From: Bacillota bacterium
GTDB lineage: Bacteria > Bacillota > Sulfobacillia > JAIMAT01
Direction: 5' to 3'
Assembly (NCBI GenBank): GCA_029960955.1
Contig: JASBVS010000005.1
Location: 53,200 to 117,199, forward strand
Length of the DNA stretch: 64,000 bases
The number at the start of each line of letters is the position of its first letter. The first letter of the stretch is position 1. The notes below the pieces were generated by a model. It searched no databases. It was not told where the DNA came from and worked only from the letters and a program-made list of their open reading frames with translations. A program made the translations under genes and the position numbers. Shown here piece after piece: positions 14,704-22,011 of this stretch.

Positions 14704-14867
14704 CCGGTCCGGCAGCGCCGGCCGCCCTTCGCCCGGCCTTCCGGCCGGCGGGCGGCCGGCCCCCTTTTCGCCTCTCGCCTTCCGCCCTCCACGCCTCGCC
14801 GCCGCTATTCCCTTTCGCGCGAGCGGCGCCTATCATCATGACGAGAACATCCGAAGGGGGGCTGTCC

Positions 14868-15242
14868 GTGAAACGGATCCGGGTGGAGATTGTCGGCCTC
14901 CTGCCGGAATTCTTCAACATGTGCGCCGCCTGCCAGGGCATGGACTTCCTCCGCATCGCCAGCCTGGACTACCCGCGCGACCAGTTGCGGGAGTATCCGC
15001 CCGAAGTGGTGGAGGAGCAGCAGCGTGCGGTCGACGTGGTCAACGCCCTGGTCGGCGAGTTCGGTCCGGCCGTGGAGCCGGTCAGCGTCGACGTCTATTC
15101 GCCGCAGGGTCTCTGGCTCTCGCTACGCCACCGGCTCGGCCGGGGACCCGCGCTCGTCGTCGCAGGCCGTCGCGTCGTCCGGGAGTTGACGCCGGAGGCC
15201 GCATGCGCGGCGGTGCGCCAGGAGATGGTGGCTTCGGTCTGA
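14868..15242 (+). CDS. Hypothetical protein (CxxC-containing; possibly a thioredoxin-like fold)
   Basis: VKRIRVEIVGLLPEFFNMCAACQGMDF... GAAGGGGGG lies 7 nt upstream of GTG 14868 (longest ORF from 14838). I could not assign a family. Confidence 0.5.
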   Translation: MKRIRVEIVGLLPEFFNMCAACQGMDFLRIASLDYPRDQLREYPPEVVEEQQRAVDVVNALVGEFGPAVEPVSVDVYSPQGLWLSLRHRLGRGPALVVAGRRVVRELTPEAACAAVRQEMVASV

Positions 15243-15402
15243 CCCCCGGGGAATTCTTTCCGCTTTTCGCTGCGCCCGTCTCGCCTCTTCAAGTCAGCGC
15301 ATGGTTCGCCTCGGAAGGATTTCGCTCTTCGCCAGTCGAAGCCTCCTCTCACCGCGCCGCCGGGTGCGCGGCGGCGACGCTGCCACAAAAGGAGGGAGAA
15401 GC

Positions 15403-17127
15403 GTGACGACGCCGTTCTGGTTCGTCGTGGCGGCCCTGGTCTTTTATGGGATCGCCTTCCTGGGCTACGGCCGCTGGTACGACCGCAACGTCTGGAAACC
15501 CGACGCGAAGCGGACCACCCCGGCCCACATGTACATGGACGGCGTGGAGTTCTTCCCTGCGAGCCGGTACGTGCTCTGGGGCTACCAGTTCAAGAGCGTG
15601 GCCGCGCTGGGTCCGATCCTCGGTCCGTTCATCGCGCTCCAGTACGGCTGGTTGCCCGCCCTGATCTGGATCATCCTCGGCAACTTCTTCATCGGCTGGC
15701 TCCAGGACTACGGCGCCATCATGGTGTCGGTCCGGAACAACGGCCGCTCCTTCGGTCCCATCTCCTACGAATTCACCGGTGCCAGCGGTCGCAGCACCCT
15801 GCTGGGATTCATCCTGTTTTATCTGCAGATGATCTCGGCGACCTTCGTCTTCTTTATCGCGCAATTCTGGAACACCCTTCCCGGCACCTTCGCAGCCACG
15901 GTGGGTATCATCATCACCGCGGTGATCGTGGGCCAGCTGATGTACAAGGTCCGCCTCAACGTCGGGCTCACCACGCTGATCGGTCTTCTCCTCGTGGTCC
16001 TCTCCATCGTGGCCGGCGTCTACCTGCGGACACCGACCGATCCTTTCGGCGCCTGGTCGGCCCCCTTCTGGGCCGCGCTGGTGGGGGTCTTCCTCTTCGT
16101 CGCCTCCGTGCTGCCGCTGCCCTCGCTCATCCAGCCCATGAACTTCATCAGCTTCTTCCCCACCTTCATCGCGGTCATCCTGATCATCATCGGCGGTCTG
16201 CTTTCGCCGGTCTTCGGCGTCTCGCTGCAGCAGCCGGCCTGGAAGGGCTTCTGGTCACCGGCCACCGGGCCGCTCTGGCCGATGATGTTCCTGGCCATCG
16301 CCTGCGGCGCCATCTCCGGCTGGCATAGCCTGGTCGGCAGCTCCACCACCTCCAAGCAGCTGGACCTGGAGACCGACGCGCACCCCGTCGGCGCGGGTGC
16401 CATGCTCTCGGAGGGCCTGGTGGCGCTGGCCTCCCTGGCCGCCTACATGGTCCTGGCGCCCGGCGAGATCACCAAGAACACGACCGCCTGGGTGGCGGGC
16501 GCCATCCGCCTCACCGAGGGCTTCCTCGGCGGCAAGGGCGCCGAGGCCTTCCTGGCCACCTTCTTCGGCGTCTCGCTGGTGCTCTACGCCATCACGGTCC
16601 AGTCGCTGGTCACCCGCTTCTGGCGCCTGATCTCGGCGGAGGTGGCCGGCCAGGGGCGCTTCGCCATCCTCGGCCAGAAGCACGTGGCCACGTTCCTCGG
16701 CATCCTGATCGCCTGGCTCTTCGCCGTCTCCGGCTCGTGGAACAACCTCTGGCTCTACTTCGGCGGCTCCAACCAGCTGCTGGCGGGCCTGGCGCTGATG
16801 CTGATCTCCATCCACCTCGCCCGGGCCCAGAGCCAGAGCGGCTGGACCTTCTGGCCGGCGATGTTCATGATCGTCACCACCATCCTCGGGCTGGCCTTCC
16901 AGACCTACGTTTTCTTCAACGCCGTCTACACGGGGAAGACGCTGGTCCAGCCGCCCCTGGGCACCATCCCCTGGGCCGCCCACACGCTGGACGCCATCTT
17001 CACCCTCGTCGGCGTGATGCTGATCGTCCTCGGCCTCCGGATGGCGGTGATGACGATCCGCTCCTACCTCGCCTCCCGGGCCCAGCCCATGGCGGTGGCG
17101 GGACAGACGGCGACACCGGCGCGTTGA
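15403..17127 (+). CDS. cstA: Carbon starvation protein A (CstA family transporter)
   Basis: FLGYGRWYDRNVW...GYQFKSVAALGPILGPFIALQYGWLPALIWIILGNFFIGWLQDY..., more than 14 TM segments. AAGGAGGGAG lies upstream of GTG 15403. Confidence 0.93.
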   Translation: MTTPFWFVVAALVFYGIAFLGYGRWYDRNVWKPDAKRTTPAHMYMDGVEFFPASRYVLWGYQFKSVAALGPILGPFIALQYGWLPALIWIILGNFFIGWLQDYGAIMVSVRNNGRSFGPISYEFTGASGRSTLLGFILFYLQMISATFVFFIAQFWNTLPGTFAATVGIIITAVIVGQLMYKVRLNVGLTTLIGLLLVVLSIVAGVYLRTPTDPFGAWSAPFWAALVGVFLFVASVLPLPSLIQPMNFISFFPTFIAVILIIIGGLLSPVFGVSLQQPAWKGFWSPATGPLWPMMFLAIACGAISGWHSLVGSSTTSKQLDLETDAHPVGAGAMLSEGLVALASLAAYMVLAPGEITKNTTAWVAGAIRLTEGFLGGKGAEAFLATFFGVSLVLYAITVQSLVTRFWRLISAEVAGQGRFAILGQKHVATFLGILIAWLFAVSGSWNNLWLYFGGSNQLLAGLALMLISIHLARAQSQSGWTFWPAMFMIVTTILGLAFQTYVFFNAVYTGKTLVQPPLGTIPWAAHTLDAIFTLVGVMLIVLGLRMAVMTIRSYLASRAQPMAVAGQTATPAR

Positions 17128-17233
17128 GGCTGCACGGCTTCGGCGAGGCCGTGCGAGGGCAGGGACCGGCCCAGGCGACGCAGACCGGCGGCCGGCCGGC
17201 GGGCGGCCGCGAGAACGAAGAAGGGCATCGGAG

Positions 17234-17263
17234 CCCGGGCAGGGCCGGCGGGTCCTGCCCGGG
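17234..17263 (+). terminator. 10-bp GC hairpin between cstA and the first gene of the ArsA-like cluster
   Basis: CCCGGGCAGG-10 nt-CCTGCCCGGG, ending 30 nt before ATG 17293. There is no U-tract, so function as terminator or attenuator is unproven. Confidence 0.4.
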
Positions 17264-17292
17264 CGCAACCTATCTCGGCGAGGTGAGAAGAG

Positions 17293-17610
17293 ATGTTCTG
17301 GCGCCGCAACAAGAAGACGGAGCAGGAGGCTCCCGCCGAAGGCGGGGAGACCGGCGAGAAGCAGGGCCTCGGCAACGTGATGAAGGACGTCCTCTACGGC
17401 ATGGCCTCGCACGGCAACGTGACCGCGGCGCTGCGCACGCGCATGTACATGGAGCACCTCTTCATGTTCATCACCCTGGGCGACATGCTCGGCATCCCCG
17501 TCCTGCCGCCCTACTACTCGCTGCGGATTCTTCCGTACGCGGTTCCCAACATCGAGTCGTGGAAGCAGCGCGTCTTCCGCGAGCGCGACTTCACGGACGC
17601 GCTCTACTAG
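17293..17610 (+). CDS. Conserved ~100-aa hypothetical protein, copy 1 (paralog of 20901..21203)
   Basis: GAGGTGAGAAGAG lies upstream of the ATG. The core HLFMFITLGDMLGIPVLPPYYSLRILPYAVPNIESWKQR aligns with the copy on the other arm. Confidence 0.75.
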   Translation: MFWRRNKKTEQEAPAEGGETGEKQGLGNVMKDVLYGMASHGNVTAALRTRMYMEHLFMFITLGDMLGIPVLPPYYSLRILPYAVPNIESWKQRVFRERDFTDALY

Positions 17611-17652
17611 CGCGGCTTGCCGGTTCGCGAGCTCATCGGAGGTGAAGACGAC

Positions 17653-18651
17653 TTGAAGCCGGCCGGGCTCAAAGCCTACTTCGACGCACACCCCGAGATC
17701 CGCGTGGCCATCTTCGCGGGCAAGGGCGGGCTGGGCAAGACCACGTCCAGCTCGTCGCTCGCCTATTACATGGCTACGGAGAAGAAGTGCAAGACGCTCC
17801 TCTTCAGCACCGACCCCCAGGCCTCGCTCTCCGACATCTTCGAGCGGAACTTCTTCGGCAGAGGCGTCATCGAGGTGATCCCGAACCTCTTCGTGGTCGA
17901 GATCGACGCCGACCGGCGGGTGGCGGAGTACCAGGCGAGCGTCAAGCAGAAGATCCGCGACATGTACGGGCTGGACGAGCTGCCGCGCGAGATCGAGGAG
18001 TACGTCGACTCCTCCTCCGCGGAGCCGTCCATGTACGAGTCGGCCACCTACGACGCCATGGCCGAACTTGTGGCCGCCAACGAGTACGACATGTACATCT
18101 TCGACATGCCCCCCTTCGGGCACGGCGTGCGCATGGTCGCCATGGCGGAGATCCTCTCCAAGTGGGTGGAGAAGATCACCGAGGCGCGCAGCCAGGTGGC
18201 CGAATACGAGCAGGTGGCCGCCTCCCTGAAGGGCGAGCGCGCGCAGGAAGACGCCATGATGGCCGAGCTGCTCGACATCCGCCAGCGGATCACCACCTTC
18301 ACCGACCTGATCACCAACCAGAAGAGCACCGGCTTCTTCATGGTGCTGATCCCGGAACAGATGGCCATCCTCGACACCGATCGCGCCCTCTCCATGTTCT
18401 CCGAGCTGGGCATCCAGCTCTCCGGGCTGATCGTCAACCAGGTCTACCCGCCCGAGCTGATCGAACAGCCCAACCTGAGCGAGTTCCTCCGCAACCGGCT
18501 CGAGGGACAGCGTCCCTACCTGGAGGAGATCGCGCGCAAGTTCGGCGAGCGCGTCCTCTCCGTGGTGCCCATGTACACCCGCGAGCCGAAGGGGCTGGAG
18601 ATGATCGCGCGGGCCAGCGCCGACCTGATGGATTGCAAGGTGGCCATCTAG
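17653..18651 (+). CDS. ArsA/Get3 (TRC40)-family ATPase, copy 1 (motifs intact)
   Basis: Deviant Walker A AGKGGLGKTT, STDPQASLSD (ArsA A-loop/switch I type) and DMPPFGHGVRM (DTAPTGH-type switch II). TTG at 17653 has GGAGG 10 nt upstream; the longest ORF starts at TTG 17617. Confidence 0.88.
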   Translation: MKPAGLKAYFDAHPEIRVAIFAGKGGLGKTTSSSSLAYYMATEKKCKTLLFSTDPQASLSDIFERNFFGRGVIEVIPNLFVVEIDADRRVAEYQASVKQKIRDMYGLDELPREIEEYVDSSSAEPSMYESATYDAMAELVAANEYDMYIFDMPPFGHGVRMVAMAEILSKWVEKITEARSQVAEYEQVAASLKGERAQEDAMMAELLDIRQRITTFTDLITNQKSTGFFMVLIPEQMAILDTDRALSMFSELGIQLSGLIVNQVYPPELIEQPNLSEFLRNRLEGQRPYLEEIARKFGERVLSVVPMYTREPKGLEMIARASADLMDCKVAI

Positions 18652-18712
18652 ACGAGCCGGGCGAGCGTGCTCCGGCGCGCTTCCACCCAGGAAGGGAGGA
18701 CGGTTCCCGACC

Positions 18713-19738
18713 ATGCAGAGCCTGAGCGAGTTCCTCGAGGAACACCCCGACCTGCGCTTCGTCTTCACGGGCGGGAAGGGCGGGGTCGGCAAGACGGTCA
18801 GCGCGGCGGTGCTGGCCTACCACTTCGCGCGCCAGGGGAAGCGGACGCTCCTGGCCTCGCTCAACCCCGTCCACTCGCTTTCCAGCCTCTTCGGCCAGGA
18901 CCTCTCCGGCGGCCAGGTGCGGCCGGTGCGGGGAGTCGACGGCCTCTTCGCCATCGAGGTGAACACCGAGGACGCGGTCCAGCGCTACCGGGAGAGCGTC
19001 AGCGCGCGCATCCGCGAGTTCCTCCGCTACGCCGACATCCCGGTGGACGCCCGCCCCTTCATCGACATCGCCATGACCAACCCGGCCTTCGAAGAGTCGG
19101 CCATGTTCGACAAGATGACCGACATGATGCTGATGCAGTCCGGCGAATACGACCGCATCGTCTTCGACACGGCGGCCGTCGCCAACGCCGTCCGCCTGAT
19201 CGGCCTCTCCAAGATCTACGGCCTCTGGCTGGGTCGGCTCATCGAGAGCCGCAAGGAGGCGCTCTCCCTCCGCGTCCAGCTCTCCTTCCGCAAGGATAAG
19301 GTGCTGGAGGAGGTGCAGCGCGACCCGATGATGGCGGACCTGATCGCCATGAGCCAGCGCTTCGACAGGGTGAAGGGGCTGCTGGTCGATCCGGCGATCA
19401 CCGCCTTCTTCTTCGTCACCCTGCCGCTCTCCCTGCCCATCTCGGTCGTCAAGCGCTTCATCGAGATGGTCCGCGCCTACGACATCCCGGTCGGCGGCGT
19501 CCTCGTCAACGAGGTGATCACCCACGAGTCGCTGGGCGAGACGCCGGACGAGTACCTGCGGAACAAGTTCGCGGAGCAGGGCGCCTACCTCCAGACCATC
19601 CAGAACGACCTGGGTCCGCTGGTGCGGGCCTACCTGCCGCTCTACCCCCGCGAGGTGGTCGGCCTGGAGGCGGTGGAGCGGGTGGCCGAGGACATGTTCC
19701 GGCCGAGCCAGGACCTGGCCGCCGAGCTGCCCGCCTGA
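18713..19738 (+). CDS. ArsA/Get3-family ATPase, copy 2 (divergent signature motifs)
   Basis: GGKGGVGKTV P-loop. The N-terminus LSEFLEEHPDLRFVFTGGKGG parallels copy 1. The STDP motif is replaced by SLNPVHSL and switch II by DTAAVANAVRL. Confidence 0.85.
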   Translation: MQSLSEFLEEHPDLRFVFTGGKGGVGKTVSAAVLAYHFARQGKRTLLASLNPVHSLSSLFGQDLSGGQVRPVRGVDGLFAIEVNTEDAVQRYRESVSARIREFLRYADIPVDARPFIDIAMTNPAFEESAMFDKMTDMMLMQSGEYDRIVFDTAAVANAVRLIGLSKIYGLWLGRLIESRKEALSLRVQLSFRKDKVLEEVQRDPMMADLIAMSQRFDRVKGLLVDPAITAFFFVTLPLSLPISVVKRFIEMVRAYDIPVGGVLVNEVITHESLGETPDEYLRNKFAEQGAYLQTIQNDLGPLVRAYLPLYPREVVGLEAVERVAEDMFRPSQDLAAELPA

Positions 19739-19762
19739 GCGACTGCACGGAGGCGCCGTAGG

Positions 19763-20260
19763 GTGGAGGGCGCACGGGTGAGCGAGCATCTGATCGCGGC
19801 CAACAACCTGATCCTGGGAACGGTCAACTTCCTCGTGCTGACGCTCCCCGAGGGGTGGGGCCTGATGGATCCGGGCAGCCCGCCGGAGGTGGAGGCCCGG
19901 GTCCTGCTCGACGGCGTCTCCTGGACGCGCGACGGCCGGGCCGCCTACCTGCTCCGGCTGGACGACGGCCGCGTGGCCCACCTGGACCTGCGCGTCGCCT
20001 CCGCGCTGCCTCCGCCCCCGCCCGGCCTCCAGCCCGAGCGGCCGGCGGTCGAACTGGCCGTCAACGGCCATCCCGCCCGGCTGGAGTCGGGCCGGGCGCG
20101 GCCGGTCCTGGGGCGGTTCGGCCGCGCCCGGCCGGTGCTGACCCTCGGCTTCGCCTGCCCGGTCACCGGCCGCGGGCTGCGCCTCACGCTCTGGGGCGAG
20201 CTGCGGGCGGAGGAGCGGAGCCAGCTGGTCGCCAGCCTCGCCGCGCTGGGCTGCCATTGA
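19763..20260 (+). CDS. Hypothetical protein (last gene of the plus-strand arm)
   Basis: It follows arsA-like 2 by 24 nt. GGAGG lies upstream of both GTG 19763 and GTG 19778. No recognisable motif. Composition is typical of this genome. Confidence 0.5.
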   Translation: MEGARVSEHLIAANNLILGTVNFLVLTLPEGWGLMDPGSPPEVEARVLLDGVSWTRDGRAAYLLRLDDGRVAHLDLRVASALPPPPPGLQPERPAVELAVNGHPARLESGRARPVLGRFGRARPVLTLGFACPVTGRGLRLTLWGELRAEERSQLVASLAALGCH

Positions 20261-20274
20261 AGCGGGGGCCCCGG

Positions 20275-20293
20275 CGCAGGAAGGCTTCCTGCG
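20275..20293. terminator. Short hairpin between the two convergent arms
   Basis: CGCAGGAAG-g-CTTCCTGCG, between stop codons at 20260 and 20331. Confidence 0.35.
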
Positions 20294-20330
20294 GCGCGAC
20301 CCGCCGGCGGAGGGTGCAGCGGGCGTGCCG

Positions 20331-20837
20331 CTAGGCGAGGTCGGCCACGCGCCCGCGCAGCGTGCGGAAGGCGGCCTCCACCACGGGTTCGGGCACGCCG
20401 CGCAGCGGGACGGCCAGGTGCAGGTGCGGGTGCTCCCTCCGGAGCGCCAGCACCGATCCGGCCGGAAGGCCGGGAAGCCGGTCGGGGCTCTCCAGGATCT
20501 CCTCCCGCCCGGGACGGCGCAGGAGATCGGCCTCGATCACCAGGGTGTCGCCGCGCCCGCGCCAGAGCGCCCAGAGGACGGCCAGCGGCGCCTCGCGCCC
20601 GGCCAGGAGGGCCAGGACGGAGACGGCCCGGTAGGGGGCCGAGGCGTCCCGGATGTCGATGCGGAAGGCCGAGCTGCCGTGCCAGCGGATGGTGGCCGAA
20701 CCGGCCAGCTCCCGCAGGTGCGGGCGGAGGGCGGCCAGAAGGCGTCCGGCGCGGCGGCGGTTGACGAGCCCGCCGGCCACCCACCAGACGGCGAGCAGGC
20801 CGGCCAGCCCGAAGACGAGCCAGTTGAGCGGCGACAC
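20331..20837 (-). CDS. Hypothetical N-terminally membrane-anchored protein
   Basis: MSPLNWLVFGLAGLLAVWWVAGGLV is a single TM followed by RRR. GGGAGGGAG lies 4-5 nt upstream of GTG 20837. No family recognised. Confidence 0.6.
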   Translation of the reverse strand: MSPLNWLVFGLAGLLAVWWVAGGLVNRRRAGRLLAALRPHLRELAGSATIRWHGSSAFRIDIRDASAPYRAVSVLALLAGREAPLAVLWALWRGRGDTLVIEADLLRRPGREEILESPDRLPGLPAGSVLALRREHPHLHLAVPLRGVPEPVVEAAFRTLRGRVADLA

Positions 20838-20900
20838 GTTCTCCCTCCCGGCGCGGGCGGCCCGGCCGCCCGCCTTGGACGAGAGGCGGCGCAGGCCGCC

Positions 20901-21203
20901 TCAGTCGAAGTGCGGCAGCTCTTCGACGATGTCGACCTCCTGTGCCAGCCGCTCCCGCCAGCCCGGCAGGCCTTCCAGGGCGTAGGGCAGGAGGCGGAGG
21001 CTGATGGAGGCGTTCATCAGCGGCAGCCCCAGGAACTCGCCGAAGATCATCAGGCGGACGAGGTCGTCCAGCTTCCTGGCCTGTTCCGCGGTCTCGCGGT
21101 AGCTGTCGTAGTAGAAGAGGCCCCAGAGGAACTGGCGGACCTTCTCCCGCCAGCCCGGCAGCCCGCGCCGCCCGCCCGCGCCCGTCCCCGCCGTCGCCCG
21201 CAT
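20901..21203 (-). CDS. Conserved ~100-aa hypothetical protein, copy 2 (paralog of 17293..17610)
   Basis: DLVRLMIFGEFLGLPLMNASISLRLLPYALEGLPGWRER aligns with copy 1. A strong GGAGGGGAGGGGGAG RBS is present, and it starts 25 nt after the upstream gene. Confidence 0.75.
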   Translation of the reverse strand: MRATAGTGAGGRRGLPGWREKVRQFLWGLFYYDSYRETAEQARKLDDLVRLMIFGEFLGLPLMNASISLRLLPYALEGLPGWRERLAQEVDIVEELPHFD

Positions 21204-21228: not shown

Positions 21229-22011
21229 CTAGACCGGCGTGCCGAAGAGCCGCTCCTGCCAGCCCCGGAAGTACCGCCAGCTGGCGAAGTTGAGGACGCG
21301 GCGGGCGCGGCGGAAATCGGAGGCGAGACTCTCCAGCACCTGTCGCCAGCCGGAGAGGTTGGCGCCCTCCTGGTCGGCCGCCAGCTCGTAGTAGCGGCGG
21401 CCTTCCTCCTCCAGCCAGTCCAGCGGCGTCGCCGAGAGCCTCGCCACGTGCTCGGCGAAGACCCCGCTCAGGAAGAGCGCCAGGTCGCCGATCCGCCGGT
21501 AGACCAGGAAGCGGTCGCGGGCGTCGACCACCCGGGCCAGCTCCTTCATCCGCCTCAGGTCGAGCTCGCTGACGCGCATCCTCCGCGGTCCGCGCGGCGT
21601 CCGCACCCAGATGCGGCCGCTGCTCGCCCGGGTGAAGGAGGCCAGCAGCAGCGCCAGGTAGTCCCGCCGCTGCCGGTCGGCCAGGAAGCGGACCAGCTCC
21701 GGCGTGTCGAAGACCGGCACCCGCATCCGTGGCCCCGCCAGCTCGCTGGCATAGCTGGTGCTCGCCAGGTCGCGCAACGCCTGGCGCAGGAAGACCTGGA
21801 AGAGGAGGAAGGGCGTCACCCTGGCCAGCCACTCCTCGACGCGCGAGAGCTCCGCGAAGAGCCGCGGGTCGTCCAGGAGGACCTCCACCTGCTCCGGAGC
21901 CCGCCGCAGCCTCTCCACCGCCTGCGCGCCCTCCCCCTGCCCCGTCGCCTCGGCCAGGAAGCGCAGGTCCTGTTCGCTCAGGTGCTCGAGTAGGAGCGGC
22001 GACGCGGCCAC
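21229..22011 (-). CDS. Hypothetical 260-aa protein
   Basis: GTG at 22011 has GGAGGG 9 nt upstream. Mostly helical-looking sequence (..FLLFQVFLRQALRDL.., ..YRRIGDLALFLSGVFAEH..). No recognisable family. Confidence 0.6.
   Translation of the reverse strand: MAASPLLLEHLSEQDLRFLAEATGQGEGAQAVERLRRAPEQVEVLLDDPRLFAELSRVEEWLARVTPFLLFQVFLRQALRDLASTSYASELAGPRMRVPVFDTPELVRFLADRQRRDYLALLLASFTRASSGRIWVRTPRGPRRMRVSELDLRRMKELARVVDARDRFLVYRRIGDLALFLSGVFAEHVARLSATPLDWLEEEGRRYYELAADQEGANLSGWRQVLESLASDFRRARRVLNFASWRYFRGWQERLFGTPV

Follow-up and report, generated by a model that had tools for sequence, protein, structure and literature searches.

The gene neighbourhood of the CstA permease family has been described in prokaryotes by Castillo and Saier (2010; Int J Microbiol 2010:187373, PMC2963123). 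There, a SEED comparison found cstA together with homologues of arsA, each encoding a single domain of about 330 amino acids, in 26 genomes. A protein of about 90 amino acids, named CstX, was encoded with cstA and the paired arsA homologues, and a protein of about 210 amino acids with a single transmembrane segment (TMS), named CstY, was reported in five archaea. CstX was itself scored as having a single TMS, and two CstX paralogues were noted in two archaea. CstA was found to co-evolve with ArsA and CstX, and from this co-phylogeny the authors proposed that CstX is a linker coupling CstA transport to ATP hydrolysis by ArsA. The present analysis concerns two small genes of a Bacillota bacterium, CstX-A and CstX-B (A and B for short), located in a stretch of 64,000 nucleotides referred to as the window (assembly GCA_029960955.1, contig JASBVS010000005.1, positions 53,200 to 117,199 of the forward strand). 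Both proteins belong to the Pfam family DUF7990, and they are encoded in a cassette with a CstA permease and a pair of ATPases of the Get3/ArsA fold, ArsA1 and ArsA2. Judged from the genomic evidence below, there is about an even chance that they serve as helical adaptor, or docking, subunits of a membrane complex formed by CstA and these ATPases.

The two open reading frames (ORFs) had been singled out as paralogues in a sequence-only reading of the window, whose quoted translations match those obtained here. This relationship has been borne out. BLASTP aligns A (105 amino acids) with B (100 amino acids) over 80 ungapped columns at 25% identity, with 43 bits and a composition-adjusted E=1e-11, and both proteins match the same NCBIfam model, as described below. 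A scan of the whole 64 kb with a profile of the family matches only A (126.8 bits) and B (116.0 bits). The shared region opens at about position 25 in A (YGMA) and position 17 in B (LWGLF), with an invariant glycine. The similarity thus covers about 80 residues and not 39, and the unrelated N-terminal part, given before as about 40 residues, is reduced to some 17-25. The conserved core proposed in the same reading stands, with a correction to its spacing: five residues between A-[VL] and the tryptophan fit both proteins, and the four originally written fit neither. A very different nucleotide composition of the two genes had also been taken as a clue to their origin, which was left as either an old duplication or two independent acquisitions under selection. 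The difference is confined to the first and second codon positions and is purely an effect of amino acid composition, while the GC content at third positions (GC3) is 0.953 in A and 0.950 in B. Base composition is therefore no evidence for separate acquisition, and neither this nor a recent duplication is accepted on grounds of GC. The old duplication is the part of the claim that stands, since A-type and B-type sequences form separate orthologous groups, each common to Bacteria and Archaea, and the duplication must be ancient.

The suggestion that the genes are under selection is likewise supported. The core of A (76 residues) is under intense purifying selection, with ratios of nonsynonymous to synonymous substitution rates (dN/dS) of 0.006-0.15 against 14 orthologues. 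The Shine-Dalgarno sites of both genes are strong: GAGGTGA lies 6 nucleotides 5' of the start of A, and a GGAGG-rich run precedes the start of B. Together with the low dN/dS, these sites are indirect signs that A and B are translated. Spurious long ORFs are common in high-GC DNA, and as many as 78 ORFs of at least 60 amino acids occur in 15 kb, which could favour the view that the similarity arose by chance or that the frames are not translated. Chance similarity and non-coding ORFs are excluded, however, by the pairwise E value, by the numbers of homologue clusters (818 for A, 326 for B), by the low dN/dS, the GC3 of 0.95 in the called frames and the Shine-Dalgarno sites, and by a synteny kept in Bacteria and Archaea.

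Homologues of both proteins occur across phyla, and the family that the sequence-only reading could not name has been identified. B is 100% identical to a database protein (P0121) that bears a precomputed Pfam tag, PF25952.1 (DUF7990). A is assigned through its close homologues, all of which bear PF25952 among those listed (51-92% identity), and through its match to the family profile. A local Pfam scan gave no family for A or B at E<=0.1, the copy used presumably having no DUF7990 model. The 120 homologues listed for A come from Bacillota, Armatimonadota, Chloroflexota and archaea, and their source names, where present, are all 'hypothetical'. A single-sequence word search with B gave 3 matches, and the 326 clusters were reached with a B-type profile. 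When 1.84 billion representatives were searched with a profile, 430 clusters were retrieved at E<=0.001, nearly all of them 80-125 amino acids long.

A related family is known in Corynebacterium. The NCBIfam model NF041419 (cory-CC-star) is matched by A with 32.1 bits (E=8.5e-8) and by B with 36.4 bits (E=3.9e-9), over 51-61 of its 80 positions, and by all 148 family sequences compared (A, B and 146 representatives; best E=2.5e-16). All these scores are far below the equivalog cutoff of 80 bits, which makes the Corynebacterium proteins a sister branch rather than the home of A and B. The 'CC' in its name presumably refers to a C-terminal Cys-Cys just before the stop. A ends in TDALY and B in LPHFD, and there is no cysteine in either protein. 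In Escherichia coli, the small proteins YbdD and YjiX (DUF466) are encoded after cstA; A and B showed no match to DUF466 in the Pfam scan at E<=0.1.

The CstX of Castillo and Saier is almost certainly DUF7990, to judge from the agreement in size, position and species rather than from accession numbers. Their Symbiobacterium thermophilum pair (Sth1, 345 amino acids; Sth2, 339 amino acids), corresponds to a locus of the present sample (L012) whose cassette is that of the window. The family and its gene association were thus already described in 2010, the adaptor idea included, and the present finding is a rediscovery of both and not a new kind of element. A literature search for CstX, DUF7990 and cory-CC-star found nothing beyond PMC2963123 and no experimental follow-up. 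New here are the recognition of two ancient subfamilies, the partnerships of A with ArsA1 and of B with CstY, natural fusions, an Asp-to-Asn change in ArsA2 and the lack of a canonical transmembrane (TM) segment in CstX. As far as the accessible text of the 2010 paper goes, the B-CstY association, the fusions, the ArsA2 change and two accessory members, p134 and p165, are not reported there.

The linkage of the family was followed across genomes. At least 595 species genomes, counted with one genome per species, carry an A-type gene, and 79 loci were analysed, namely the best matches to A-type patterns. An ArsA-like gene lies within 1.2 kb downstream of A on the same strand at 70 of 73 loci, with a median gap of 30 nucleotides. 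At these loci an ArsA pair stands directly downstream of the A-type gene, in agreement with the link to ArsA-family genes expected earlier. Of the grounds on which the sequence-only reading would have been abandoned, a lack of homologues, a lack of ArsA linkage and an insignificant alignment under composition-corrected scoring do not apply. The other three loci all come from Asgard contigs. At two of these (L048 and L050, Thorarchaeota / Promethearchaeota), which hold four DUF7990 domains, the query hit is a lone extra A-type copy; a second A-type copy is found about 5 kb away beside an ArsA pair, with two further divergent copies. A CstA gene occurs within 6.5 kb of A at 37 of the 38 loci that could be evaluated, 28 times upstream on the same strand. 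The partners listed in the sequence-only reading, the ATPases, were therefore correct, and the permease upstream and the tracking of B with CstY had been missed. Most loci carry two DUF7990 domains (53 of 79), while one, three and four domains are present at 21, 3 and 2 loci. In this respect the sample differs from the 2010 paper, where two paralogues appear as exceptional. The cassette has been found in Bacillota, Chloroflexota, Acidobacteriota, Thermoplasmata, Bathyarchaeia, Thermoproteota and Asgard archaea, and independent look-ups returned the same gene order in Thermaerobacter, Thermoplasmata, Anaerolineae and Ktedonobacteraceae.

The two subfamilies are distinguished by their signatures, YGMAxHGxVTAALRTR...GIPVLPPYY...RVFRERDFTD in the A-type and LWGLFxFDxY...GIPLMNS...APxxH in the B-type. 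They also differ in their neighbours. The copy beside ArsA1 is always A-type, and the second, B-type copy lies within 300 nucleotides of a CstY-like gene at 26 of 48 loci (median 71 nucleotides). In one case (L088:8001-8991), the genes for a B-type CstX and a CstY-like protein stand together on their own, and neither ArsA nor CstA is encoded within 8 kb. Conservation within the cassette is highest in A, as expected of a hub with several partners, and B is faster-evolving. Compared with Thermoplasmata, full-length identity amounts to 69% for A, 64% for each of ArsA1 and ArsA2, 54% for CstA, 41% for B and 33-34% for p165 and CstY. The core of A is 83-84% identical between the Bacillota bacterium and Thermoplasmata archaea, a remarkable degree of conservation. 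Protein identities of 54-69% to these archaea suggest that the cassette may have been transferred as a unit between the domains in the past.

Some further features of the subfamilies were observed. An A-type (P0038) and a B-type protein (P0232) come from one metagenome-assembled genome of Armatimonadota, and the wide separation of their locus tags suggests that the cassette has been split in that lineage. The B-types of Symbiobacteriaceae, Thermaerobacter and related Bacillota (L010-L018), as well as P0124, P0127 and P0131, have His-rich N-terminal tracts such as HHHGHRHE, GHSHEGHGQAHGDEP and HEHAHGHAHDD; the B of the window is without such a tract. In most B-types, histidine is also part of the C-terminal motif (APHIH, APDVH or HLHGV). 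These tracts and ends may bind metal.

The two ATPases pass the TIGR00345 model (TRC40/GET3/ArsA; at least 135 bits, with GKGGxGKT). Among solved structures they are nearest to the archaeal Get3 homologues 3ug6 and 3zq6 and the algal ArsA1 5zme, which are tail-anchor targeting factors. Against the ArsA equivalog TIGR04291 they score 91 bits each (cutoff 650). ArsA1 has two cysteines at positions unrelated to those of ArsA, ArsA2 has none, and no CxxC is present in either. With neither CxxC nor ArsA-type metalloid cysteines, the system is not an arsenic pump. In ArsA1 the motifs GKGGLGKT, STDPQ and DMPPFGH are all intact. In ArsA2 the P-loop GKGGVGKT is intact, switch I reads SLNP, with asparagine in place of the catalytic aspartate, and switch II is degenerate (DTAAVAN). 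An alignment to 5zme sets SLNPVHS of ArsA2 opposite STDPAHS. The asparagine is found in ArsA2 of all 68 cassette pairs and the aspartate is kept in ArsA1 of all 67, and switch II of ArsA2 varies among orthologues (DTAAVAN, DTAPTAN, DCAAVAN and DTAPVAH in L009-L087). In Get3, the equivalent change D57N abolishes hydrolysis and leaves ATP binding in place. The invariant asparagine, seen in the light of this effect, points to a heterodimer that is obligate and asymmetric and has a single catalytic site. Such an asymmetric pair would be matched by the two non-equivalent CstX proteins.

Natural fusions have been found between members of the cassette. Two DUF7990 domains are joined in one chain in P0001 and P0241, and the gene for P0001 adjoins a fused ArsA-ArsA of 690 amino acids in the same locus. 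In P0287 and P0345, an N-terminal domain of about 130 amino acids is fused to CstX. This domain is homologous to p134 of the window (E=1e-10 for P0287, E=4e-13 for P0345). Finally, P0242, a metagenomic fragment of 213 amino acids, runs from the C-terminus of CstA (PF02554 positions 477-560) in frame into an A-type CstX, and it could be a Rosetta-stone fusion.

The physical properties of CstX were compared with those of membrane proteins, for which a mean Kyte-Doolittle hydropathy of 1.6 over 19 residues was used as the threshold. The maximum is 1.41 in A and 1.48 in B, and the summed apparent insertion free energies are +7.8 and +5.4 kcal/mol. With the same scan, CstA shows 12 segments, and CstY and p165 show a single one at the N-terminus. 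It can be concluded that CstX has no canonical TM helix, as the sequence-only reading had supposed. The single TMS given to CstX in 2010 came from a different predictor, and it is a descriptive feature, not a criterion of homology. The helices have hydrophobic moments of 0.11-0.38, a modest amphipathicity that speaks little for helices lying on the membrane surface, and a mean Eisenberg hydrophobicity of at most 0.30. In an AlphaFold2 model of A, built from an alignment of 124 sequences, a disordered N-tail rich in Lys and Glu is followed by a long helix at about residues 26-65, the conserved G-I-P-V-L-P-P loop and helices at 73-83 and 88-104, without a confident tertiary fold (predicted local distance difference test, pLDDT, 62; predicted template modelling score, pTM, 0.28). 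The model of the natural fusion P0001 also contains helices only (pLDDT 73, pTM 0.30). Here MAFFT placed all homologues on the C-terminal half, which leaves the N-terminal half without alignment depth. A Foldseek search of this model against the PDB gave no meaningful match (best E=9.5), and no PDB sequence was matched by A even at E<=10. From these models, A and B are most likely small all-helical cytoplasmic proteins without a stable fold of their own, a profile consistent with folding upon partner binding.

A docking element, a client and an adaptor had been considered as possible roles of the two proteins in the earlier reading, and docking or adaptor function is the best fit to the comparisons made here. 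The proposed machine would comprise the CstA permease, a heterodimer of ArsA1 (catalytic) and ArsA2 (with the dead Asp position), the single-pass proteins CstY and p165 and often the CxxC protein p134. CstX-A, the gene of which appears translationally coupled to ArsA1, would bind the ATPase dimer, and CstX-B would bind the CstY anchor. The two could pair through their shared core, G-x-x-L-G-[IL]-P ... L-R-[IL]-L-P-Y ... W-[KR]-x-R. In this way the ATP-driven cycle of open and closed states of the ATPase dimer might be tied to the permease, as that of ArsA is to ArsB. The adaptor role is favoured because of the linkage to ArsA and CstA, the fusions, the tracking of B with CstY, the conservation of A, the lack of TM-grade hydrophobicity and the asymmetry of ArsA2, and because co-phylogeny had led the 2010 authors to the same idea of a linker. 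The physical contacts, the stoichiometry, the direction of coupling and the substrate of the machine are inferred from these data. Several observations weigh against the adaptor role. Five loci (L036, L038, L062, L069 and L077) carry one DUF7990 copy although their flanks are complete, so that an A/B heterodimer is not obligatory everywhere, and the adjacency of B and CstY is limited to about half of the loci with a second copy. Distant members, such as the cory-CC-star branch of Corynebacterium, lie outside the sample of loci. The models of A and P0001 are of low confidence, and P0242 could as well be a frameshift or assembly artefact, being a single metagenomic fragment. ArsA-ArsB works without an adaptor, so that the analogy by itself predicts none. 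The literature search brought up no direct interaction, localisation or expression data on any member of the cassette.

CstX-A and CstX-B could instead be clients, either tail-anchor-like or hairpin proteins, that a Get3-like ArsA1/ArsA2 chaperone captures by their hydrophobic core and brings to the membrane, where they would become small subunits of CstA. The relationship of the ATPases to Get3 homologues and algal ArsA1 would fit this role, as would the position of the most hydrophobic stretch of CstX in its C-terminal half and the single TMS scored in PMC2963123. Hydropathy and insertion energy, however, disfavour the client option, since A and B stay below the hydropathy threshold in a scan that readily finds such segments in CstA, CstY and p165, and since the helices are weakly hydrophobic overall. 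Furthermore, the stretch contains a conserved Asp or Glu together with a Pro-rich break (GD.LG.P.lPP), and it is followed by more than 30 hydrophilic, highly conserved residues, unlike tail anchors, which occupy the extreme C-terminus. A machine of two ATPases, one with a dead site, would also be unparsimonious for two clients of 100 amino acids, and this role is considered quite improbable. A second possibility is that CstX proteins regulate the ATPase cycle, activating or inhibiting particular nucleotide states in the manner of ArsD for ArsA or Get4/5 for Get3, and that the linkage to CstA reflects shared physiology, e.g., carbon starvation. The tight translational coupling of CstX-A is indeed with ArsA1 rather than with CstA, homology extends from the family to the cory-CC-star proteins (with all 148 sequences matching their model), and the p134-CstX fusions could mean that a CxxC-bound ligand is delivered to the ATPase. 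On the other hand, CstA accompanies A almost universally over distant phyla, co-evolves with ArsA and CstX according to PMC2963123, and is joined to CstX in one in-frame fusion (P0242). B travels with the membrane anchor CstY and not with the ATPase, and ArsA1 and ArsA2, without the Cys ligands of ArsA, offer no obvious site to which a ligand could be handed over. A regulator without a physical bridge to CstA is thus less likely, given the near-universal CstA linkage and the B-CstY association, and regulation as the role of CstX is regarded as unlikely on the whole.

The members of the cassette in the window and the gene next to it are collected in Table 1.

Table 1. Genes of the cstA-CstX cassette and its flank in the window; coordinates are counted from the first nucleotide of the window.
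Feature	Coordinates	Strand	Description
p134	14838..15242	+	134-amino-acid CxxC (CAAC) protein; directly upstream of cstA
CstA permease	15301..17127	+	608 amino acids; PF02554 (CstA), E=1.9e-106; 12 Kyte-Doolittle segments
CstX-A (DUF7990, A-type)	17293..17610	+	105 amino acids; stop 6 nucleotides before the ArsA1 start
ArsA1	17617..18651	+	Get3/ArsA-fold ATPase; TIGR00345, 213.6 bits (cutoff 135)
ArsA2	18713..19738	+	Get3/ArsA-fold ATPase; TIGR00345, 191.2 bits (cutoff 135)
p165	19763..20260	+	accessory protein; one hydrophobic segment (residues 10-28); found at 32 of 79 loci (jackhmmer)
CstY-like	20331..20837	-	single-pass protein; N-terminal TM segment (residues 4-22) followed by RRR; found at 54 of 79 loci
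CstX-B (DUF7990, B-type)	20901..21203	-	100 amino acids; 63 nucleotides upstream of the CstY-like gene, same strand
p260	21229..22011	-	co-oriented, upstream of CstX-B; no family match

The permease of the window is a divergent member of its family, as its score with the equivalog model of the E. coli-type pyruvate/H+ symporter is only 170 bits, compared with a cutoff of 1188. A sequence search of the PDB gave no homologue of CstA at E<=0.01. The protein p134 has no match in Pfam or NCBIfam. Its sequence pattern is thioredoxin-like (...SPQGLWLSLRHRLGRGPALVVAG...), and a thioredoxin-like fold is predicted from this pattern only. It shares 49% identity with an ORF of the Ktedonobacteraceae cassette (E=5e-34), and p134-like ORFs lie inside the cassette at 36 of 79 loci; it is not mentioned in the available portion of PMC2963123. 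No family match was obtained for p165. The CstY-like protein fits the description of CstY in that paper. The gene p260 was considered as a further member and rejected, since a homologue is present at 0 of 79 loci; it is lineage-specific and probably lies outside the conserved cassette. In the 165-nucleotide spacer between cstA and CstX-A, a GC-rich inverted repeat (GGGCAGG...CCTGCCC at 17240..17263 of the plus strand) is not followed by a T-run and could be an element of mRNA processing or attenuation. A scan for promoters and terminators around the cassette gave nothing informative. The arm from cstA to arsA2 (15301..19738) has a GC content of 0.64-0.68, compared with a window average of 0.738, while GC3 is 0.93-0.97 throughout. 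The steady GC3 indicates that the dip reflects a constrained amino acid composition and not a foreign origin.

The cassette shares several traits with known systems based on ATPases of this fold. As in ArsA-ArsB, the peripheral ATPase has the ArsA fold and consists of two halves that differ from each other, and it is encoded in the same operon as a polytopic permease of the secondary-carrier type. The halves are even fused in one cassette genome, as they are in ArsA. ArsD is a small Cys-containing accessory protein with a thioredoxin fold, to which p134, with its CxxC and putative thioredoxin-like fold, might correspond. In contrast to the arsenic system, the permease is CstA and not ArsB or Acr3, the ATPases lack metalloid-binding cysteines and score far below the ArsA cutoff, and ArsAB has no CstX-like subunit. 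The Get3/TRC40 system with Get1/Get2 (WRB/CAML) is alike in that the cassette ATPases belong to TIGR00345 and have archaeal Get3 homologues as their nearest solved relatives. It is also alike in concept, since short cytosolic helices of the partners dock the ATPase dimer at the membrane. The invariant basic helix of CstX-A, R-x-x-R-E-R-D, recalls the RERR motif of Get2. Unlike eukaryote-type Get3, however, the cassette ATPases have no CxxC zinc motif and one catalytic site is naturally dead. No Oxa1-type insertase is present in the cassette, and Get1 and Get2 are integral membrane proteins, whereas CstX has no TM helices and shows no detectable similarity to them in sequence or fold. BagA and BagB of Mycobacterium tuberculosis (Rv3679/Rv3680) are another adjacent pair of Get3-like ATPases in a bacterium. 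ArsA1 and ArsA2 score only 30-46 bits against their models (cutoffs 400 and 521), and to our knowledge BagAB has no linkage to CstA. In Corynebacteriales, a small protein related to DUF7990 may go with BagA and BagB, a lead given only by the homology to cory-CC-star.

Prokaryotic homologues of Get3 and ArsA other than arsenic pumps are widespread, and the cassette ties these to the CstA family. Its anatomy, with two CstX proteins matched to two ATPases, B accompanying CstY, natural fusions and a dead site in ArsA2, provides hypotheses that can be tested. It is conceivable, though rather doubtful at present, that the cassette represents a new class of primary-active transporter, in which an asymmetric heterodimer of the Get3/ArsA fold, with a live and a dead catalytic site, would drive a CstA permease through a heterodimeric CstX-A/CstX-B module. 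This module would have moved in one piece between Bacteria and Archaea, Asgard lineages among them. In that case CstX would have no known precedent as an adaptor docking a Get3-fold ATPase to a solute carrier, and it could illuminate the roles that Get3 homologues had before tail-anchor targeting evolved.

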